A stretch of DNA of 64,000 bases from Dictyostelium discoideum. Its lineage: Eukaryota. Made by a program: the position numbers and the translations under genes. The stretch covers positions 3,520,001-3,584,000 of the forward strand of contig CM000151.3 of the NCBI GenBank assembly GCA_000004695.1. Direction: 5' to 3'. Shown piece by piece: positions 1,982 through 37,232 of the stretch (the stretch's first letter is position 1; each line of letters starts with the position of its first letter). The notes beneath the pieces were generated by a model. It worked only from the letters and a program-made list of their open reading frames with translations. It searched no databases and was not told where the DNA came from.

Positions 1982-4331
1982 GTTAAACATATTTATATTA
2001 ATCAAAAATAATTATCTTTTTTTATTTTATTTTTTGATCAATAGACCAGATTATATAATTATTCTAACAGTATTCAAAAAAAATAAAAAAAAAAAACATG
2101 ATACACCCATAAAAACTAATGTCATAAATTTTTTTTTTTTTTTTTTTAAGGTGAATTATAATATTTATTTTTTCCATAAATTTTTTATTTACAGCAATAA
2201 ATAATTAAAATTAATTTTCGTTTTTTCATTTTTTTTCATTTTCCATTTTATTTTTTTTTTTAATTCCCAAACACTTTTTTTAATTTTTTCAATTTTTTTT
2301 TTTTTAATTCTCTTAACCAAATATCTATATATTTTAAATTTTTTTTTTAAATTCAAATAAATAAATAAATTAAAATGTTTTCAAAAGGAATCAATATAAT
2401 GGGTCACTCTTAAAATAAAAAAAATAAAACAATAATGATAAAAAAAAAATAAAAATATTAGTGTAATAGGAAATTTATGGACTCAGAAAAACAATATATT
2501 TATTTTTGAAATTGTACCCTCTACAAAGAAAAAAAAAAAAATAATCACACAGAAATAAAATAATTATTTTTTTAATTTATTTTTTTCTTTTTTTTTTTCA
2601 AAACTAATTTTTATATGAAATAAAAAAATAAAAGTAAAAAAAAATAAAAAAAAAGGCAACGAACATACACCAGCACCTCATAAAATTACTTTTCACCACT
2701 GAAATTTTTACATCCCTTACTAATTTTTAATTTCATTTTTTTATTTATTTTTTTCTTTTTTTTTTTTTTTCTTTTTTTTTTTTACTTTTTTTTTTGGTTA
2801 ATAAAAAAATAAATAAATAAATAAACAAATAAAAAAATAAATAAATTTTTTGAGTTAATCTATAAAGCAGGTTTAGCAAATGGAGTTTGGTTTTTAATAT
2901 TTTTAGGGGTATCATTGTTGGTAATTTAGGTACAGCGGCAATAATTGATATAGCAGGTTTAGCAAATGAAGTTTTATTTTTAGGTGATCATTATCGATAT
3001 TGGGATTTGCAACATTGGGTAAACCAGCAAAAGTTAATGGTAAAGGACAAATAGCAGAGAATCAAACTAAGTATTAATATGAACCATCATCAGGAGATAG
3101 GAACAAGATGATACAACAACAACAACAACAACAGGTAAAAGAAAAACTAAAGATACAGACAATAGTTCAAATAAAAAAAGAGTGTAAGTTTTATATTTAA
3201 AGATAGACCAATTCGATTACTGGTGACCATTACTTTATAGTGGTATAAGTCAATCATTCTTTTTTTGGTGTATTCCCTCAATTACTTAGTAAAGAATGGA
3301 TTGGTAAAGCTGTGGCTTTTTTTACGATGCTTCTGTTAGTAATTTCGGAGCTTCACCTGGTAAAGGTAAACAAGCTGCAAAGAATTAGAAAAGATTAAAT
3401 ATTTAGAAATGACATGACGTTAAGCTATTAAAGTTACAAAAATGTAAATAATCATAATAAATTAATAAATCAATAAATCAATAAATTAAAAAATAAATTA
3501 ATTAATAAATAAATAAATAAATAAATAATTAAATAATTTTTAAAAAGTACTCTAATTTTGGAATTATTTGTTTTTTTCTTTTTCTTTTTTTGCTCTAAAA
3601 CTTTTTTTTTTCTTATTTTCATATACACTACTTTTATTTTATTTATTAATTTTGTGCAAATAAAATTAACATAAGAAAATACTCGACACACGAGAAATTT
3701 ATTTTATATTATAATTTTTAATATTATGATTATTTTCATTCTTGAAACTTCTTTAAGTGCTTCACGACAAGCCATATCTGAACATTTAACCATCAAATCA
3801 TTCTATGCAGTTTGATTACCTTCATCAAGTGAAGCACCTAAATAACCACTTCAATAAAAACTATTTTATGTATGTTTTGGACACTTAAGAAAAACTACAG
3901 AGTTTATTTTTCAATTTATCACTATACTGCTCAAATTAACTTAATAAATGACTATATTTTTTAGAAAAAAAAAGTAAAAAATAAAGAAATTCATGACTTA
4001 ATAAAGTAAACAGTGAATCAAAAATGTAAACCGAAGTTATTTGAGGCCATGGTGGATCAGTTGAGACGGCTAATGTGTTTATACCTGAACATGTACATGT
4101 AGTATTGTTCTTCTGTTTATAGAGTTTGGAGTTGGTGATTATATGTACACATTATTATTAAAGAATGAAATTCTTGATTTATACCAATCACTAGATAATT
4201 CAGCATTAACACCAAATATAATACAAGGTCATAGAAAATATTTTGAATAATTGATTTTAAAAGCAAAAAAATTATAAGCATCACATGATAAATTATAAAC
4301 ATTACATGATAAATTTTAAACATATGCACAG

Positions 4332-4786
4332 TTTTTTTTTTTTTTTTTTTTGAATTGGATAACGCAATTATTATTTGCTTCTCCTTGAGATGCTAGATCT
4401 CATTTTATTTTATTTTTTTTTTTTTTTACAGGGTCTCTAAAAGAGGGGTTGGTTTACTTTTTTTTTTTTTTTTTTTTTTTGTTTCGAATTTTGAATTGTA
4501 TTATTACTTTTGATTAAAACATCTTTTTTGTCCAAACTTTTTTCTAAATCTTTTTTTATTTTATCGTCTGGTTCGTGATTGATGTTTATGACGTATTTGA
4601 ATTGTTTTTTTTTTAATTGAGTTTTATCCACAATTTCGCTTATTTTTTGTAGGCATTTGTGTTGCTTAATATTTGTGGTGTTGTTTGTGATTTTCATTTT
4701 ATTTTCTTTCTATTTTTTTTATTTTTCTTTAAAAAGTTAAAAATCTGGAAATTTTCTGATTAACTTGGGTTCCAGGTTTTTTTTTT
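4332..4786 (-). mobile_element. 5'-truncated TRE5-like non-LTR retrotransposon 3' end (C-module-like), flanked by an 18-bp target-site duplication. Itself interrupted by a roughly 115-bp insert (4376..4489).
   Basis: Poly(T) 4332-4350 is the element poly(A) on the minus strand. 4352-4375 and 4490-4560 are the reverse complement of 14366-14447 (the tail of the element next to tRNA-Glu). ttttaaacatatgcacag occurs at 4314-4331 and 4787-4804. The block ends 48 bp upstream of tRNA-Leu. Confidence 0.6.
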
Positions 4787-4787
4787 T

Positions 4788-4844
4788 TAAACATATGCAC
4801 AGGAGTTTGGTGAAAAAATTTTAAACATATGCACGGGAGATTGG
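4788..4844. repeat. Direct repeat taaacatatgcac(a/g)ggag(t/a)ttgg at 4788-4810 and 4822-4844. The second copy overlaps the first 10 nt of tRNA-Leu.
   Basis: Seen directly. A third partial copy at 4314-4331 borders the retroelement poly(T). Confidence 0.8.
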
Positions 4845-4913
4845 TCGAGTGGTTAAGACAATAGATTTAGGCTCTATCCTCCGGGGTCGCGGGTTCGAAC
4901 CCCGCATCTCTCA
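4835..4913 (+). tRNA. tRNA-Leu, anticodon TAG (UAG), class II with a long variable arm.
   Basis: GGGAGAT acceptor pairs with ATCTCTC (one G-U). D-stem GTC/GAC. Anticodon stem ATAGA/TCTAT. Loop TTTAGGC. T-arm GCGGG-TTCGAAC-CCCGC. Discriminator A. Confidence 0.85.
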
Positions 4914-5454
4914 CATTCTTTTTATCCATTTAAATATCTAGATTTCCCTGAAATTTACCTAATAAGGTTAAATAAAATTAAAAAAAGAATGAGGTCAACC
5001 ACATTAAATTGGTAGGAATTTATTTGAGTTTTTACTATTTACGAATAACATTTATTTATTTGATCTATAATTTCATTTTTTTATATATTAACATTATATT
5101 ATTAAGGTTTTTAAAATTTTATTTATTTTTTTTTTTTTTTTATTTTTTTTTTTTTTTTTGAAACTCACACATAATATTGCATGCAGAAATACAAATTTAA
5201 AAAAAATCCGAATTAACACCTATTATTACTAAAATATCTACATCTAGATCAAGTAAATAATTAATTAATATCAAATAAATAATAATAATAAAAATCATAC
5301 ACATTATATGTGCTCATTTTTGAGTAGCTAATCTAAAGAATCTGGTTAAACTTTATATTGTGTGATACTACTGTATGTTAGTATTAGTTGTGCATGTCCT
5401 TGCATCCACTTTACACTGAATGAATAGTAATCAATGTGGTTGGGTCAACTGACA

Positions 5455-5633
5455 TAATTTGCGATATTTGCATGGGAGGTTGGTCAGCTGACATTATTAA
5501 CATTGTTCGCAAGGGAGGTTGGTCAGCTGACATTATTAACATTGTTCGCAAGGGGTAGTTTAGCTGACATTATTAACAATATTGGCATGGGAGGATTGTC
5601 AACTGTCATTATTAACAATATTCACAAGGTCAT
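5455..5633. repeat. About 4 imperfect tandem copies of a roughly 40-bp unit (ggttggtcagctgacattattaacattgttcgcaaggga).
   Basis: Seen directly. Immediately abuts the discoidin pseudogene fragment. Confidence 0.7.
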
Positions 5634-5770
5634 GGTGCTGCTATTACTGGTGTAACTGATCGTATCACTGTTGTTAATCATTTCTTTGATACCCCTATTG
5701 ATGCTCGTTCAATTGCTATCCACTCATTAACCTGGAATAACCACGTTTCATTAAGATGTGATATCTATAG
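5634..5770 (+). pseudogene. Discoidin I internal fragment (about 45 codons, [45 protein letters not shown]) with no start or stop context.
   Basis: About 90% nucleotide identity to 1363..1499 of the intact gene. No flanking ORF continuity. Confidence 0.8.
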
Positions 5771-6452
5771 ATTATATAAATTATTATTAATTATTCAAGG
5801 GTCACACATCGTTTATTGATATATCCAAAATAATATAAGTATTCCATAAAGTTAGAATACGAGATTCATTACAATTTGTAAGGTATGCAGTAGTTCTTTG
5901 TTACAATAATTATTTATATTATTAAATTCATTTTCATTTATTATATTTATTCATTTACATTTTTCATTTGTAAATTAGTTTATTTTGTATATTCTTTATA
6001 AAGTTATTATTTTGAGTTTAATGTGCTGACGCTCCAACATAACAAATAAATCTTAATATATCGATATTAAATAAAAAAAAAATAAAAATAATAACTACAA
6101 GCAATAAAATTCATTTTGCCTTAAATTACTTCTTTCCTAGCTTAGCCCTCCCAAATAGTTTATTCGTGATACACAAATTACCTTTTTAAATCATCAAATT
6201 GTTCAATTTTATTTTGTAAATTAACCTTTTTCCATAATCAATCTCAATTGAAGATGGATTACCTCTAAACCAATGTTAATATATATATTATATAGTTTAC
6301 ATTAATAATAAAAATAAATTTATATATAAATATATCATATTAAATATAAAAAAAAAAGAAAATATTAATAATAAAAATTAAATTAAATATTTAATATATA
6401 ATATATTTTAAATTTATACTTTAAGTAAAAATATAAAACCAAACAACAAATT

Positions 6453-6495
<43 letters not shown>

Positions 6496-13027: not shown

Positions 13028-13420
13028 AATTCTTATTATTCTCAATGTCATAAAAACATTTTCATCGCCATATCGCAACATTTTTTAATAATATCTCCCA
13101 AACCATTTTTTTTTTTTTTTTTTTTTTTTCAAAACAATGGTTTATGAAAATTCCACAATTTGAATTTGTTTTGTTGAAAAATGAATATTTAAATTATTAA
13201 TCTTTAAAATTAAATCAAATTGTTAAATTTATAGATAAATATATATAAATCAAATTGAAGTTTAGTAACTTGCGAAAAACCTTACAAAATGTTGAATTTA
13301 TAAGTTATGCAATATAAATATATAAATAAAATATATGTTAAGAAAGAGATAATAATTACAACAAATAAAGAGTTTATTATTGTTATGAAAATTGTAAAAA
13401 CGAAAAACTGTTTATTTTTA

Positions 13421-13550
13421 TTTTTATATTTTCGGTTTTAACTTTTTTTTTTTACCTAAAAGCGGTGTATATTTTCGGTTTTAACCGTTTTTTTTTTTTT
13501 ACCTAAAAGCGGTGTATTTCGGTTTTAACCGAACTTCGTAAAAATATCAA
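13421..13550. repeat. 2-3 tandem copies of a roughly 45-bp unit (acctaaaagcggtgtat(at)tttcggttttaacc-Tn), in the 3' flank of tRNA-Glu.
   Basis: Seen directly. Each unit carries cggttttaaccg, a degenerate B-box-like GGTT...ACC motif. Confidence 0.6.
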
Positions 13551-13565
13551 TTTTAGTAAAAAAAA

Positions 13566-13637
13566 CTCCCCATTCGGGAATCGAACCCGAGGTACCAGTG
13601 TGAAAGACTAGAGTGTTACCGACTACACCAATGAGGA
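13566..13637 (-). tRNA. tRNA-Glu, anticodon TTC (UUC).
   Basis: Reverse complement TCCTCATTGGTGTAGTCGGTAACACTCTAGTCTTTCACACTGGTACCTCGGGTTCGATTCCCGAATGGGGAG. Acceptor TCCTCAT/ATGGGGA. Anticodon stem CTAGT/ACTGG. Loop CTTTCAC. T-loop TTCGATT. Confidence 0.85.
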
Positions 13638-13683
13638 ATTATATGGAAATATTTGATTAAACAAGAAAATTTAATTATTTTAT

Positions 13684-14457
13684 TTATATGAACACCATCC
13701 AAAATTAACTCCTGGCCAAAAAGAAATAATGATCAAAATGAATAGCAAACACCTTCCATTTAAAGAAATTAAAAAAATAATAAACATGGAAGGTAGAGAC
13801 CTATTATGGAGATACACACAGAAAGCACTACCAAAAATATACAACATGCCATGCCAACAGTATGGGGAAGATGAGACTTCAGAACATATATTCTTCAACT
13901 GCAAAGCCCACATCAAAAACACACAAGAAATCTTCAACTACACATTAACCAAGTGTGGACACACCTGGAATGTTAAGATTTTAAACCATCTACAAATTGC
14001 ACTAATATCCAATTTAATAGCTATTATATTCGAAAAAATTTGGCACAAAAGAAACAAACTCATCCACGATGAAATAGAAATAGTAATTCATAGACAACAA
14101 GTCATACGTGAACTAATTAAAACACAAAGAGTTGCATGGGATAGGACACAAGCGGTTATAAACAAAACATTAAGAATCAAATCAAAGCAATGGCCAGAAG
14201 AACAAAATAAATTAGACTCATTAATCTCTAAAGTTATTACAATTTAACAGACAATGGAACTCACCTCTTCACGCAATAGCACTTCCCAAACATCTCAAAA
14301 AATACAATAATTCACTCAGTACTCTCTATAAATGAAAAAAAAAAAAAAAAAAAAAAAATATAAAAAAAGATTTAGAAAAAAATTTGGACAAAAAAGATGT
14401 TTTAATCAAAAGTAATAATACATTCAAAATTGCGTTATCCAATTCAAAAAAAAAATA
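13684..14457 (+). mobile_element. 5'-truncated TRE5-like non-LTR retrotransposon: ORF2 C-terminal portion (13729..14247, Cys/His-rich tail HIFFNCKAHIKNTQEIFNYTLTKCGH), A-rich tract, then C-module-like tail and oligo(A).
   Basis: The element's 5' junction is about 46 bp upstream of tRNA-Glu on the opposite strand. The tail 14366-14447 is repeated inverted at 4352-4560. Candidate TSD ttaattattt at 13672-13681 and 14458-14468. Confidence 0.6.
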
Positions 14458-14820
14458 ATTATTTAATTTAATATTCAAAAGAAATAATTATTAAATTTCA
14501 ACAATTTACAAATATTAATCAAATCTCTTCTTTCAAAATCACTAAATTAATAATTTACAGTTTGATATTTATTCAAACTCTGTATTCATAAAAACTCAAT
14601 TATCAATTTACATATTACAAAAACCGATTAACATAATTATAAAAATCTAAAATTAATATCTAAATAATATTACAAAAATTTCAGTACAAAATTAAATTTT
14701 ATTTAAAATTCTATTAAAATAAATTAAAAATTGTATAAATAAATAAATAAATAAATAAAACTAAAAATTAAATTAAACTAAATAAATACCATATAAATAA
14801 ATAAATTAAAATTAGTTATA

Positions 14821-15639: not shown

Positions 15640-18600
15640 ATTGTAGTTTAAATTGGATCTAACCCTATCGGCCGAGGTTGGAGTAGTTAATAGATTTGAG
15701 TTCGCTCAAATCTAAGGACTATAAAAGGAAACTAGGTTTCCAATTCAACCTCAGTAGTAAATATATACAAACAATAAAAACACGATAGGGCTACGGTCAT
15801 TAATTAATTTTGTGTACATTTATTTCTTAAATAATTAATCATTTTACTTTAATAATAGAATAAATAAATAATTAAATTTTATTAAATAATTTATTTTAAG
15901 AGAATGTCAACTAATAATAACGAAGATATTGATAATGATGAATTGCAACAACAGGATAATGAGGAACAACAGCAACAACCACAGGTATCAACATTCAATG
16001 AACAGCAACGTCAGATAAGGGAACAGCAGCAGGTAATAGATAAACAAAATCAACTTCTTCAACAACACATTCAATTAATAAATCAACAATCTCAACAACA
16101 ATTGAATAATCATACGACACCACCATCATCACCCAACATTACAACACCAATAACTTCAGCAGCAATAACCAACACAATAAAGAAATCATTAGGAAAAATT
16201 AACACTGATGATACCGACCACCAGTTGTTACAGTAATGATTACAATTAAACAATAATAATTAAAATAATAATTTATTTAGTTTTATATAATTTAGAGTTT
16301 TCATTCGAAACTTCTCGGTCGAAAATTGTAAAAACTAAAAAAAAATAAAGTTAGTTCTGATTGACCTTTACAGCATTCTTATAATATTAATTGTTTTCCT
16401 TTGTTTACTAAGACAAAAACATTAAAGCATAACCCAAACACACTCAAACTCAAACACATATCAACAATTGATGGTAGAGCTATTTTAGCAGACGTTATAT
16501 TTCCAAATCAATTACCAATTGGTATTCTTGGAATTTATGCACCAGCATCAAATGATACCATCAAAAAGAATTCATAACAACTTCACTACAAACACTTCTC
16601 CACAACCACTCAACAAACCCAATACCAAACCAATCCCAACATGTATCTATTATCGCAGGCGATTTCAACTGTATCCACAACGACAATTCACTATTAGACG
16701 ATATTATCCAATCCTACACATACCAACACCATCTAATTGATCAAGGTGAATTTAAAAACACTCCAACTCATACACATGGCAACAGATTAGATAGAATATA
16801 TACTCATTACAATAGAATAGACCCTGAAAATTTATACACAAGTCCACCAAATTCCATCTTCATTATCAGATCATAATCCAGTATCAACAACAATTTCTTC
16901 ACCTTTTCAAATAAATAAACATAAGAAAAGATGGATATTATCACCTGGTACTGCAAATGACCATGAAGCAATCAATATTATCAATCATTTAATAACTAAT
17001 CACAATAACACATCAATCAATCAATTTACAAATTGGTCAAAAGTAAAATCAAAAATTATTAAAACTCTAAAAAACTATCAATATAACAAAGACAAACAAA
17101 CTCAACGTGCAAAACAAATACTATTAGAAAAAGCAGCAAAATTTAAACATCTTGAAAAACAATGCATCGCTGAATACAATATTATATGTAACAAAAACAA
17201 ATTACATCAAAACCACACAAACAAATAAAGGAGAAATACCTATAAGTATCTATCAGCAATACTAAACAAAGATCAAAAGATGCAAAAATTACCTTCTGAG
17301 AATACTTCCCTTCATCGTCAACATCAACCAAACTGGTTTCGTACCCTACAGATTTATCATAGACAACATCATCAACATCAATGAATTAATCAACTACCTC
17401 AAATCTAAAAACCTCCCTGGTAACATCACACTATTTGACTTCTTTAAAGCATTTGATTCTCACGATAGTATTAAAAGAACATTAATTCATATTGGTATAC
17501 CAATAAAATTAATAAATATAATCCACAAGCTTTTATCTGACTCACAAGCAAAAATTTCAATTAATGGTAAAACGACTAGAAAATTCGATATTAAAAGTTG
17601 TGTAAAACAAGGTGACCCAATCTCAGCCACTTTATTTGTAATTGTAATTGAAATATTAGCAAGAACAATAAATGCAGACAATACAATAATTGGATTACCA
17701 ATTTCACCCAATCCACAAATTAAAATCAAATTTACCCAATTTGCAGAAGACTCTACAACATACAACATCAACTACGAACAACAACAACAATCAATCAAAC
17801 ATTTCGATAATTTCTGCGCTTCAACATCATCATCATTAAATTTTGACAAAAGTGCAATAATAGAAATCAACCCCCACAAAATCACTGATAAACACTTAAT
17901 AAACAACATTCCACAATCAAAAAGAATACCAATAACCAAAAAAGATCAATCAGAAAGAGTTCTTGGCTATTTCTTTAATCATAATGGTTTACATAGGAAA
18001 TTACCAGAAACAATGAAAACACTGATCAAATCATTAGTACTATGGAAAACTAGTGGCACAACATTAAAAACAAAAACAACCATCATAAACACTTACTCAC
18101 TATCACCAATAACATATTTATCATACCTTGAAGAATTTACAAAAGATGAAGAAATTCAAATTAATAAATTAATCTCATGGTTTATGAATTCTCCCGCAAA
18201 TTCTGAATCACCAACTCTCAATACCAATTCCATTGAAAACAACACATCAACCATCCATTCACGTGCAAAAATACCTTTGATGTGTTATGATAGATCATTA
18301 AAACTATTAAAAGAAGGTGGTTGGGGTATGTGGAATATACAATTACGACAAGCTGCTCAAAAGATTTGGATATACAACATATTTTTACAAATGCATAAAT
18401 CTGCAAACAATTCAATATACATGATAAGTTGGATGGATCAAATCATCAACAAGTCAATCTCTTCTCCATTCCTTATAAAAATCAAAAAAGAATGGGAAAA
18501 CTATGCAACTCAAATTAGATATCTAAAAGATAAAATTCAAACCCTACAACCAATATTAATAAAAAACCAAACCACTCAAACATTAACCACAAATAATATT

Positions 18601-19647
18601 TCACTACCACCAACACTCAAAGAAATCTACTCGACAATACTCAACAATCACCAATGTAAATCAAAAGACTATATAGGAAAGAAATATTCAGATCTACTTC
18701 TTACTTCGCACCAACAATCAATATAACTATTATGGAAATACACATACGACCAACTATTTGTCAAAATTCAAAAATTAAAAGATCCAAAAGGCCGTGATAC
18801 AATGCAAAGATTCCATGCTAGATGTCTTCCGATTAATCATCTACACAACAAAGTTTGCTCCATTTGCAACAATGAAATGAATAATGATCCCTATGGTCAT
18901 TTGTTTTTCAATTGTCAGCACACAATCAACTTCATAAACCACGACAAATTAAAATATTTTATATATAAAAATTGCAATGGAAACAAAAACTGGTCACTAA
19001 CAAAAAACCAAACAACAAAATTATACACACTCATTTATAAACCACAAACAAACAACAAAGCATTTAAACCAGATCCAACTATCAATATTAATTTTCATTT
19101 TGCAGAAAACGCACAATATAAAAAATACAGGTTCAACTGGAATTATATAAACACAAATCTTGATCTAGTCAGAACACATGCATATTGGAACATAATCTCA
19201 TTAGTTATTCACCAAATATGGATATGGTTATGCAAATCATTATTTGACATCAATATAACTCAATCAATTGACAATTGGAACAACCAAATAAACAACACAA
19301 CACTAGATTATGATATATTAAAATCAAAATGGCACAAGCTAATAAGATTGGAATATTCCAGAACATTATCAAACTTTAACCAATACTCAATTAAAAACAA
19401 CCTCACAAAAACTCAAAAAGAAACCCAATGGCCCGAAACCATCAAAAAATTTAAAAAAGAATGGAGCATAAACACAAACCAATGCTGAAACCAATTCCAA
19501 CAATTACACCACCAATTAATTATTAATTACCTAATCTAAAATAACATACCATTTTAAATTCACAAAAACTAAAAAACCTAAAATAAATAAATAAAGTACT
19601 AATTGTATACTACAATAGTTTATTTATATCAAAAAAAAAAAAAAAAA
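15640..19647 (+). mobile_element. Degenerate TRE3-like non-LTR retrotransposon. It has a Q-rich ORF1-like ORF (15904..16236), an ORF2 with APE-type endonuclease (about 16440-16960, several stops), reverse transcriptase (about 17340-18000, FDFFKAFDS...CVKQGDPISATLFVIVIE), a Cys/His tail (about 18800-19490), a 3' module and A17.
   Basis: RT and EN motifs readable but interrupted by frameshifts and stops. Its poly(A) end lies about 50 bp from the 3' end of tRNA-Phe, i.e. downstream of the tRNA. The terminal region differs from the TRE5-like tails. Confidence 0.65.
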
Positions 19648-19697: not shown

Positions 19698-19771
19698 TGC
19701 CTCAGGCCGGGATCGAACCAGCGACCTTAAGATCTTCAGTCTCACGCTCGTACCAACTGAGCTACTAAGGC
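19698..19771 (-). tRNA. tRNA-Phe, anticodon GAA.
   Basis: Reverse complement GCCTTAGTAGCTCAGTTGGTACGAGCGTGAGACTGAAGATCTTAAGGTCGCTGGTTCGATCCCGGCCTGAGGCA, very close to canonical eukaryotic tRNA-Phe. Confidence 0.9.
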
Positions 19772-35698: not shown

Positions 35699-36299
35699 AT
35701 TTGGATTTTTTTTTTTTTTTTGATTATTAATTTTTTTTTGATTATTAATTTTTTTTTTTTTTTTGTGGTTATTGTAAAAATGTATTATCTAAGAAAAAAA
35801 AAAAATCATTGGATAATCCAAATTAAGTGCAAATATTTAAAAAAAAAATTTTTAAATAAAAAAAAAAGGATTCAAGCAAATCAAATCAAATTAAAAAAAA
35901 AAAAAAAAATTTAAAAATAAAAAAAAATAAAATCAATTATTAAAATTTATTTTTTAACGCCCAAACACAAAAAAAAAAAAAAATGCAAAGATTGAAATTA
36001 ATAAGTGGTTTATTGGAGTGAAGTTGATTTTTCTTTTCAGAAACTAACCAAAAATAAATTAATTTTTTGATTATTATTTTTTTTTTCATTAAATTTTTGG
36101 ATATCATTAAGTTTAGGGGTGGTGTTGATTTTTTTTTTATAAAATAAGGAAATTTCACACTCTGTTAAAAATGGTGAGTGGTTTTTTTTTCTAAATAAAT
36201 CATGGTTGGTTTACAAAAAAAAAAAAAAAAAAAAATTAAAAAAAAAATAAAATCTAATTACAAAGTAGTTTAACTTCATAGTGTTAAAAAATCAATAAT

Positions 36300-36411
36300 A
36301 AAAAAAAAACTATAAATAAAAGAAGTTTTTTTTTTTTTTAATCATTAAATTGAAAATCAAAATTTCATTAATTCAAATTATCTTTTAAATATTAAATTCA
36401 ACACAAATAAA
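36300..36411 (+). promoter_or_regulatory. Discoidin I core promoter/5'UTR, with ctataaataaaag about 100 bp upstream of the ATG.
   Basis: Same ordered sequence blocks as 930-1044. Confidence 0.5.
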
Positions 36412-37173
36412 ATGTCTACCCAAGGTTTAGTTCAACTCCTCGCAAATGCTCAATGCCATTTAAGAACCTCAACCAATTACAATGGTGTCCACACTCAATT
36501 TAATTCTGCCTTAAACTACAAAAACAATGGTACCAATACCATTGATGGTTCAGAAGCTTGGTGTTCATCAATCGTAGATACCAACCAATACATTGTTGCT
36601 GGTTGTGAAGTTCCACGTACTTTTATGTGTGTTGCTCTCCAAGGTCGTGGTGATGCTGATCAATGGGTTACATCATACAAAATCCGTTATTCATTAGATA
36701 ATGTTTCCTGGTTTGAATATCGTAATGGTGCTGCTGTTACTGGTGTAACTGATCGTAACACTGTTGTTAATCATTTCTTTGATACTCCAATTAGAGCTCG
36801 TTCAATTGCTATCCACCCATTAACCTGGAATGGTCACATTTCATTAAGATGTGAATTCTACACTCAACCAGTACAAAGCTCAGTCACTCAAGTTGGTGCA
36901 GATATTTACACTGGTGATAACTGTGCCTTAAATACCGGTTCAGGTAAACGTGAAGTTGTTGTCCCAGTTAAATTCCAATTTGAATTTGCTACTCTCCCAA
37001 AGGTTGCTCTCAACTTTGATCAAATCGATTGTACTGATGCCACCAATCAAACCCGTATTGGTGTCCAACCAAGAAATATTACCACCAAAGGTTTTGATTG
37101 TGTTTTCTACACTTGGAATGAAAACAAAGTTTACTCATTAAGAGCTGATTACATTGCTACCGCTTTGGAATAA
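36412..37173 (+). CDS. Discoidin I, third copy (253 aa). About 95% nucleotide identity to 1045..1806.
   Basis: [42 protein letters not shown]...ATALE. Confidence 0.95.
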
Positions 37174-37232
37174 ATTATTTAAATAAATTTTCATACTCTT
37201 AATACTTTTGTATTATTACTCAATTTAAATTT

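Follow-up and report, generated by a model that had tools for sequence, protein, structure and literature searches.

The tRNA-Leu(UAG) locus and its upstream insert

In the window, which is the whole 64,000-nucleotide (64-kb) stretch of Dictyostelium discoideum DNA that was analysed, a plus-strand tRNA-Leu(UAG) gene is preceded by a short minus-strand block enclosed by an exact direct repeat. The window matches assembly GCA_054883475.1 at 99.6% identity and is not identical to it. A scan of metagenomes for the tRNA-Leu(UAG) sequence gave no match, and a search for neighbouring genes with a 766-aa open reading frame of the window was dominated by low-complexity candidates and returned a single distant match. 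The features of the locus are listed below, with L005 denoting a locus of the same species that holds a full element.

4269..4310, plus strand: two 21-bp tandem units, AAATTATAAGCATCACATGAT and AAATTATAAACATTACATGAT (repeat family D8, 90%)
4314..4331, plus strand: TTTTAAACATATGCACAG, target-site duplication on the poly(A) side (left copy), abutting the T20 run exactly
4332-4784, minus strand: element block, 453 bp, bracketed by the 18-bp direct repeat
4332..4351, minus strand: poly(A) tail (T20 on the plus strand)
4352..4485, minus strand: C-module assigned to TRE5-A, 134 nt, by alignment to L005; 3′-terminal hairpin region at 4352-4405
4486..4774, minus strand: B-module assigned to TRE5-A, 289 nt, by alignment to L005
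4775..4784, minus strand: ten A's (T10 on the plus strand), the 5′ truncation point, remnant of an A-run of ~35-40 nt
4785..4802, plus strand: TTTTAAACATATGCACAG, target-site duplication on the tRNA side (right copy); the four T's at its start could equally belong to the A-run of the element
4785..4813, plus strand: pseudo-copy, with a leader (4785-4800) and tRNA nt 1-13, AGGAGTTTGGTGA (4801-4813); no B box
4819..4834, plus strand: real 5′ leader of tRNA-Leu(UAG), 16/16 identical to the leader of the pseudo-copy
4835-4914, plus strand: tRNA-Leu(UAG) gene (ARAGORN), with A box TGGTCGAGTGG at +8 and B box GGTTCGAACCC
4919-4923: T5 terminator of tRNA-Leu(UAG), read from the sequence

The first 13 nt of the 21-bp units are similar to the tRNA leader motif, and the segment at 4311-4331 forms a third such unit, in phase with the other two. 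The leader motif AAATTWTAARCAT, a pattern derived post hoc, occurs four times in the 64-kb window, in every case immediately 5′ of tRNA-Leu(UAG).

Structure and identity of the element

Judged from its sequence, the block is the 3′-terminal B-module, C-module and poly(A) tail of a TRE5-A element. The reference element at L005 has the complete order B-ORF1 (444 aa)-ORF2 (1047 aa, with reverse transcriptase)-B-C, so that B sequence is found again after ORF2 and before C, and tandem units at L005 share B-modules. Read in the sense direction, nt 1-444 of the block align to L005 9913-10358 at 97.3% identity, and nt 1-299 align at 99% to L005 140-438 and 5025-5323, which are B-modules opening the 444-aa ORF1. 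The B-module of the block includes the ORF1 start codon (ATG, 4697-4695), which aligns with the start of the L005 ORF1, and the first 73 ORF1 codons, and copies of the N-terminal peptide encoded there were found in several genomes. An A-run of ~35-40 nt precedes every B-module, standing in L005 before “cctgggaaccc”.

The measured module sizes (B 289 bp, C 134 bp, A-module repeating every 199 bp) agree with the published TRE5-A organization of AB-ORF1/ORF2-BC, in which B is 290 bp and carries the ORF1 start, C is 134-137 bp and A is 200 bp (PMC3159450). The published C-module has hairpin stems I and III and was mutated at T15, C26, A35 and C38, with numbering from the 3′ end (PMC3159450), and all four of these nucleotides match in the block. 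Its 54-nt hairpin region (4352-4405) is predicted to fold at -11.3 kcal/mol (z -3.1), with C38 and A35 in one stem and C26 and T15 in another. The name TRE5-A is a putative assignment, drawn from this match in structure and numbers to published descriptions and from the four published nucleotide identities.

The parent TRE5-A family encodes ORF1 (~51 kDa) and an ORF2 with APE, reverse transcriptase and zinc-finger domains. In the 1047-aa ORF2 of L005, Pfam detected RVT_1 at E 2.5e-33 and detected neither an APE nor a zinc-finger domain at E <= 0.01. As the block has no A-module promoter, only 73 ORF1 codons and no ORF2, transposition on its own is impossible, and the fragment is non-autonomous and probably inert; it retains the C-module hairpin and, going by the literature, a weak antisense promoter. 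Elsewhere in the window, another TRE5-A-type copy behaves alike: it precedes tRNA-Glu(UUC), with a 15-bp target-site duplication (one mismatch) and its 5′ end at -48. By eye, a C-terminal Cys/His motif was seen in that copy. A literature search for the name “TRE5-A.3” found no record.

Target-site duplication and insertion position

The 18-mer TTTTAAACATATGCACAG is 18/18 identical between 4314-4331 and 4785-4802, and both copies stop exactly at the element junctions. Because four T's are common to the repeat and to the A-run of the element, the target-site duplication is 14-18 bp long. The junction of the element 5′ end with the flank lies 50 nt from tRNA nt 1, or 46 nt if the four shared T's are assigned to the element, and the element on the minus strand, with its poly(A) tail distal, faces the 5′ end of the plus-strand tRNA gene with its own 5′ end. 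TRE5-A is reported to integrate in head-to-head orientation, 47±3 bp before the first nucleotide of a tRNA gene, 5′ truncation is described as typical, and tagged elements produced target-site duplications of 10-16 bp. The 46-50 nt junction falls within this spacing, and the exact repeat agrees with a target-site duplication of variable length, its lower bound of 14 bp lying inside the published range and its upper bound of 18 bp slightly above it.

The first-pass annotation had described a minus-strand, 5′-truncated tail of TRE5 type, and this description was borne out by the B- and C-modules of TRE5-A, the poly(A) tail, the target-site duplication, the canonical spacing and the head-to-head orientation. 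Its start of the tRNA gene at 4835 agrees with the ARAGORN prediction, while several other positions needed correction. The 18-bp duplication is indeed an exact repeat, with the right copy at 4785-4802 rather than 4787-4804 and with the ambiguity in length given above; the poly(A) tail is a T run bounded by the repeat, and is T20 at 4332-4351 rather than T19 at 4332-4350; and the block exists but, following from the corrected repeat, ends at 4784 instead of 4786. A spacing of “exactly 48 bp” captured the canonical position, and the figure falls within the 46-50 nt ambiguity. The annotation had also named, as a point against its own reading, that the repeat might be a common genomic motif, which it is not: the 16-mer core TTTTAAACATATGCAC occurs exactly three times in the 64 kb (4314, 4785 and 4819), a count matched by 0 of 100 shuffles, and a search of other Dictyostelium loci, about 95 kb in all, did not find it.

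A duplicated stretch of tRNA leader and 5′ end

The right copy of the target-site duplication is also the beginning of a partial duplicate of the tRNA gene, as had been claimed at first reading. Positions 4785-4811 and 4819-4845 are 25/27 identical (93%) at an offset, or period, of 34 bp, the pseudo-copy reaching a local alignment score of 50 where the null gave at most 24, and the second of these segments extends into tRNA nt 1-11. The left copy of the target-site duplication carries an A that is specific to the pseudo-copy (CACAG, compared with CACGG in the real leader), and the duplicate was therefore present in the target before TRE5-A landed. The 34-bp partial duplicate is thus a separate and older tandem duplication of the target at the DNA level, and since it is the real tRNA gene, with its B box, that sets the insertion distance, the element happened to land inside this duplicate. 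The pseudo-copy itself was rejected as the TRE5 target, since it lacks a B box and the observed distance suits the real gene. Also rejected was an origin of the pseudo-copy by 5′ transduction or template switching onto the pre-tRNA, which predicts a position between the element body and the right target-site duplication and an orientation that do not fit, and against which the pseudo-copy-specific base already present in the left copy also speaks.

Syntenic loci in other genomes were located through identical or near-identical discoidin I proteins. Two further genomes of the D. discoideum complex (L004 and L006) also carry the duplicate at their syntenic tRNA-Leu locus, and each of them has a different TRE5-type insert, the one in D. 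cf. discoideum (L006) being an A′-B-C copy without ORFs; the D. citrinum locus has neither the duplicate nor a TRE5-type insert. Independent hits on this tRNA-Leu gene, each by a different TRE5-type element and all at -47 to -50, have occurred in three lineages. The pseudo-copies in the three genomes comprise the leader and the first ~13-17 tRNA nt with a period of 34-38 bp, and further decayed copies lie upstream. The pseudo leader equals the real leader within each genome, and the leaders are strongly divergent between genomes. The 5′ boundary of tRNA-Leu(UAG) may conceivably be a hotspot of recurrent or concerted partial tandem duplication, a tentative suggestion that we regard as rather doubtful. 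If true, it would imply either repeated independent duplication of one segment or ongoing gene conversion, with replication forks that stall or break at the pol III complex, or repair following abortive TRE5 endonuclease nicking, as possible causes.

Proposed insertion route and alternative readings

Very probably, the block arose when a 5′-truncated copy of the D. discoideum non-LTR (L1-clade) retrotransposon TRE5-A inserted upstream of tRNA-Leu(UAG), with the pol III complex directing it to the site and target-primed reverse transcription as the mechanism. The individual steps are inferred from the junctions and from published TRE5-A and L1 biology. The ORF2 endonuclease would nick the sense strand of the tRNA gene at -33/-32, just behind ...CACAG, where the poly(A) tail would prime synthesis of cDNA from the C-module through the 3′ B-module. 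The cDNA would then end, or be joined, within the long A-run between the ORF2 3′ UTR and the B-module, a joining probably aided by AAAA/TTTT microhomology with a second nick at about -50, and filling in of the staggered nicks would produce the target-site duplication. By this route, the unoccupied site would have read one TTTTAAACATATGCACAG followed by GAGTTTGGTGAAAAAATTTT....

It could instead be supposed that the block is what remains of a longer TRE5-A, either full-length or an A-B-C derivative, after a later deletion such as recombination between B-modules with loss of the A-module. The ORF-less A′-B-C copy that D. cf. discoideum carries at its syntenic site and the tandem units with shared B-modules in L005 indicate that B-module recombination does occur in the TRE5-A family. 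However, the right copy of the target-site duplication is intact and directly adjoins the A-run of the element, and a later deletion would need to have stopped exactly at this junction; 5′ truncation is, moreover, described as typical of TRE5-A, and we judge a secondary deletion to be very unlikely. The 18-bp repeats might alternatively be two older members of the local leader-like tandem array between which the element landed, with no target-site duplication at all. The four occurrences of AAATTWTAARCAT immediately upstream of the tRNA gene do make the region repetitive, but the two 18-bp copies are completely identical and end precisely at the element junctions, their length fits published target-site duplications, no other target-site duplication is visible and the remaining leader-like units are merely about 60-90% alike, making this reading extremely improbable.

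The partial duplicate was at first attributed, as the probable origin, to an earlier cycle of insertion and deletion, and the locus was taken to record, with unusual clarity, that pol III-targeted integration had happened repeatedly. That the duplicate could be the scar of a previous TRE or other mobile element is a thought invited by tRNA genes being recurrent TRE targets and by the three genomes with the duplicate all having a TRE5-type element at -47 to -50, D. citrinum being without both. Nothing at the locus was found in support of such a cycle, and several observations oppose it. The duplicated unit, from about -20 to +14, matches no TRE5 nick position, the TRE5 target-site duplications here lying at about -50 to -33; recombination between target-site duplications would restore a single copy rather than leave two; no element remnant lies between the two leader copies; and the diagnostic A in the left copy of the target-site duplication places the duplicate in the target beforehand. 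Just one TRE is present at tRNA-Leu(UAG) within the window, and the notion that this locus records repeated integrations is very unlikely to be correct.

Relation to known elements and significance

The block shares with TRE5-A (formerly DRE) the B-module of 289 nt with the ORF1 start, the C-module of 134 nt with its hairpin and four published nucleotides, the oligo(A), a target-site duplication of 14-18 bp, a junction 46-50 bp upstream of the tRNA gene and a 5′ end facing that of the tRNA. Its B-C 3′ end is of the TRE5-A.1 type; compared with a full TRE5-A it is without the A-module, nearly all of ORF1 and the whole of ORF2, being truncated in the A-run at the boundary of the ORF2 UTR and B. 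The non-autonomous TRE5-A.2 (AB-ORF1-BC) belongs to the same family and has the same type of 3′ end, but carries a 72-bp deletion over the B/C junction that leaves 87 bp of C (PMC3159450). This deletion pattern is seen in a copy from the same species (L008), whereas the B-C junction of the block is undeleted. TRE5-B and TRE5-C likewise target positions about 50 bp upstream of tRNA genes, and TRE5-C ends in a C-module; both are without a 3′ B-module and TRE5-B is also without a C-module (PMC3159450), and since B lies directly upstream of C in the block, it belongs to neither. The 5′-truncated L1/LINE insertions of animals have in common with it the same target-primed reverse transcription, poly(A), a variable target-site duplication, 5′ truncation and microhomology at the 5′ junction, yet they use loosely defined AT-rich sites, whereas TRE5-A is directed to pol III genes via the TFIIIC/TFIIIB complex.

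The element is of a known kind, an ordinary dead TRE5-A fragment comprising the last ~450 bases at the usual landing site. Descriptions of TRE5-A (DRE) fragments some 50 bp upstream of D. discoideum tRNA genes go back to the late 1980s, and roughly one in four tRNA genes of this species has one. The locus alone matters little, other than as a clean textbook case with an exact target-site duplication, an inferred first nick at -33 and a truncation within the A-run, and the small pseudo-copy of the tRNA 5′ end, whose leader equals the real one in each genome, is of minor curiosity value. The comparison across genomes provides one modest addition, in that the hits at -47 to -50 by TRE5-type elements, independent in each of the three lineages, illustrate how exactly the pol III complex sets the site.

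Genomic setting of the tRNA-Leu(UAG) locus

The window, which has a G+C content of 20%, is 99.6% identical to D. discoideum assembly GCA_054883475.1 (contig JBTAPE010000001.1), with 100% identity across 3732-6480. The open reading frame at 1045-1806 matches discoidin I chain D from strain AX4 exactly, so the window holds the D. discoideum discoidin I locus; a third copy of the discoidin I gene is present at about 36286-37182. Between tRNA-Leu and a 766-aa gene is a 139-bp piece (5629-5767) that shares 92% identity with an internal stretch of the discoidin I genes and is probably a pseudogene remnant. Three tRNA genes were predicted, and sequence inspection of the tRNA-Leu(UAG) gene, with its A box at +8, B box and T5 terminator, indicates that it looks intact.

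tRNA genes in the window (ARAGORN)
4835-4914, + strand, tRNA-Leu(UAG)
13565-13638, - strand, tRNA-Glu(UUC)
19698-19771, - strand, tRNA-Phe(GAA)

A TRE5-A B+C tail upstream of tRNA-Leu(UAG)

The first-pass annotation recognized a TRE5-type retroelement tail here, and the evidence both supports this and sharpens it to a TRE5-A B+C tail. In minus-strand orientation the block at 4332-4784 consists of A10, a 289-nt segment, a 134-nt segment and A20, where the 289-nt segment starts with cctggaaccc and holds an ATG (4697) followed by 73 sense codons. A search with the 5' B-module peptide returned six short copies that are annotated in D. discoideum and D. cf. discoideum, and through one of these a D. 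discoideum locus with longer TRE5-A copies (L005) was fetched, whose gene map reads B-ORF1 (444 aa)-ORF2 (1047 aa, RVT_1)-long A-run-B-ORF1-ORF2-long A-run-B-C-A10. The block is 97.3% identical to the terminal B-C of this locus over 444 nt, and its nt 1-299 match at 99% the B segments with which ORF1 begins. Across 140-10358 of L005, TRE5-A units stand in tandem via shared B-modules (B-ORF1-ORF2-B-ORF1-ORF2-B-C). In a further D. discoideum locus (L008, 4512-6169), an array of at least eight A segments repeating every 199 bp precedes a copy resembling TRE5-A.2. This copy begins with B and ORF1, its ORF2 is almost entirely deleted, and it closes with part of B and the final 72 nt of C.

TRE5-A.1 has been described as AB-ORF1/ORF2-BC, with A of 200 bp, B of 290 bp including the ORF1 start and C of 134-137 bp, and TRE5-A.2 as AB-ORF1-BC with a deletion at the B/C junction (PMC3159450); these sizes and arrangements agree with the block and both longer loci. 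Four C-module nucleotides named by their distance from the 3' end, T15, C26, A35 and C38 (PMC3159450), are all present in the block at the published positions. When the final 54 nt are folded in silico (-11.3 kcal/mol, z -3.1), C38/A35 fall into one stem and C26/T15 into a second, in agreement with the publication. TRE5-B and TRE5-C were ruled out because neither has a 3' B-module (PMC3159450).

Target-site duplication and junction spacing

The window contains the 16-mer TTTTAAACATATGCAC exactly three times (4314, 4785 and 4819), a count reached in 0 of 100 shuffles, and the 16-mer was not found in the other Dictyostelium loci fetched. Extended to the 18-mer TTTTAAACATATGCACAG, the repeat is identical at 4314-4331 and 4785-4802, confirming the exact 18-bp direct repeat of the first-pass annotation, although its right copy had been placed two bases too high. 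The left copy is followed by a T20 run (4332-4351), one base longer than the T19 first read as poly(A). The proposed 48-nt spacing to tRNA nt 1 measures 50 nt from the right junction, or 46 nt when the four T's common to the repeat and to the A-run at the element's end are counted as part of the element. Published TRE5-A integration sites lie upstream of tRNA genes, about 47±3 bp from nt 1, and the element 5' end points toward the tRNA 5' end; TSDs of 10-16 bp are described, 5' truncation is frequent, and the block shows these traits of spacing, orientation, TSD and truncation.

A second TRE5-A-type copy lies upstream of tRNA-Glu(UUC) (13687-14455, + strand), with its 5' end at -48, and behaves like the block in siting and TSD. 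It is truncated at the 5' end within ORF2, retaining a 172-aa open reading frame (13729-14247) whose ORF2 C-terminus has 93% DNA identity to the L005 ORF2 3' end; a large deletion takes most of B and C, and the terminal GCGTTATCCAATTC(A)10 is retained, the block sharing this GCGTTATCCAATTC(A)n end. Its 15-bp TSD (13672-13686 and 14456-14470; TAATTATTT[T/A]ATTTA) has one mismatch. Next to tRNA-Phe(GAA), a reverse-transcriptase-encoding element (about 15858-19647, +), annotated with a 959-aa RVT_1 gene in the near-identical assembly, is TRE3-like in its position; the end of its A17 tail lies downstream of this tRNA, 50 bp from the tRNA 3' end and just past a B-box-like GTTCGATCT motif.

Origin of the duplicated tRNA 5' segment

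The near copy of the tRNA 5' segment noted upstream of the gene is indeed present: 4785-4811 matches 4819-4845 at 25 of 27 positions with a 34-bp offset, the second copy extending into the tRNA. The reconstructed pre-insertion target reads ...AAATTTTAAACATATGCACAGGAGTTTGGTGAAAAAATTTTAAACATATGCAC|GGGAGATTGGTCGAG... As the left TSD copy ends in CACAG, the version of this pseudo-copy, and the real leader has CACGG, the pseudo-copy is older than the TRE5-A insertion. It had been explained as the probable product of an earlier insertion and deletion cycle, a scar of previous integrations. That account is unsupported, since TRE5 nick positions do not match the duplicated unit, which spans about -20 to +14, since nothing separates the pseudo-copy from the real copy, and since an element lost through recombination between its TSDs would leave a single copy behind. 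The simplest account is a DNA-level tandem duplication of the target. By patterns derived post hoc, further decayed units lie upstream, of 21 bp in the window and as GGTCAAnTrACAwAA motifs in D. cf. discoideum ACTFIY (L006).

The syntenic locus, a tRNA-Leu(UAG) gene followed by a convergent gene of the same family, was compared in three other genomes. Strain ACTFIR (L004) has the 34-bp-period pseudo-copy as in the window, TAAACATGTACAC-GGGAGATTGGTCGA and then TAAACATGTACAC-GGGAAGTTGGTCGAG, abutted 48 bp upstream of tRNA-Leu nt 1 by a different, tandemly repeated element with one to three tandem 5' units of about 245 bp, which was absent from the window and the other loci fetched. Its second copy lies about 62 bp upstream of a tRNA-Met gene. 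Nested at the poly(A) end of this repeat is a C-module-only fragment (3381-3520; 15-bp TSD GGTACATTCTGGTGG).

Copies of the L004 repeat (about 0.6-1.35 kb, poly(A) end)
1993-3345
13445-14071

L006 combines a pseudo-copy of period 38 with an A'-B-C element that resembles TRE5-A and has T13, a 14-bp TSD (AATTTAAGTGGGAG) and its 5' junction at -47, and neither TRE nor pseudo-copy was found at the D. citrinum locus. Between the window and L006 the elements share 88% identity and the tRNA-side flank only 73%, and the distal flanks bear no relation to each other; as TSDs and truncation points also differ, the two insertions are independent events at the same site.

Within one genome, pseudo and real leaders are identical or all but identical (16/16, 13/13 and 21/22), whereas tRNA-Leu leaders differ strongly between genomes; the tRNA parts of the pseudo-copies have diverged, pooled pseudo-versus-real differences numbering 1/53 in the leader and 7/42 in the tRNA part. 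This pattern suggests either gene conversion between tandem copies or independent, recurrent duplications. The L004 tRNA acceptor stem carries compensatory changes (G5-C68/A6-T67 to A5-T68/G6-C67), and its pseudo-copy retains the window-type 5' strand.

Pseudo and real leader regions
Window, 4785-4845
L004, 1944-1992
L006, 18148-18161 and 18664-18720

Immediately upstream of the TRE/tRNA-Leu region, synteny among D. discoideum strains is lost, as seen by comparing the window from 4257 onward with L003 (a further locus) at about 15300 and L004 at about 13170. In strain ACTFIR, tRNA-Leu and its neighbour gene are inverted and on the opposite side of the discoidin genes, and a tRNA-Leu-like fragment, AGATTAAGGCTCTATCCTCTGG, stands at the corresponding place in L004 (about 13370-13395). 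Together these suggest a rearrangement with breakpoints at TRE/tRNA sites.

Proposed route of integration

TRE5-A is known to integrate by target-primed reverse transcription, with its ORF1 protein contacting TFIIIB and a functional B box being needed, and the block's insertion may be ascribed to this established route. Judging from the TSD, the first, priming nick would have fallen between -33 and -32 of the tRNA-sense strand, and the second near -50. The block's 5' end falls within the 35-40-nt A-run that stands before every B-module, and its AAAA/TTTT overlap with the target is a 4-nt microhomology; cDNA synthesis or joining probably stopped within this run. The block is a known kind of element, and such copies are abundant in this genome and were catalogued long ago. 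By its sequence content it is immobile by itself, because it has no promoter module, most of ORF1 is missing and so is all of ORF2. It keeps the C-module, which has been reported as a weak antisense promoter and which, in the block's orientation, would point at the tRNA gene.
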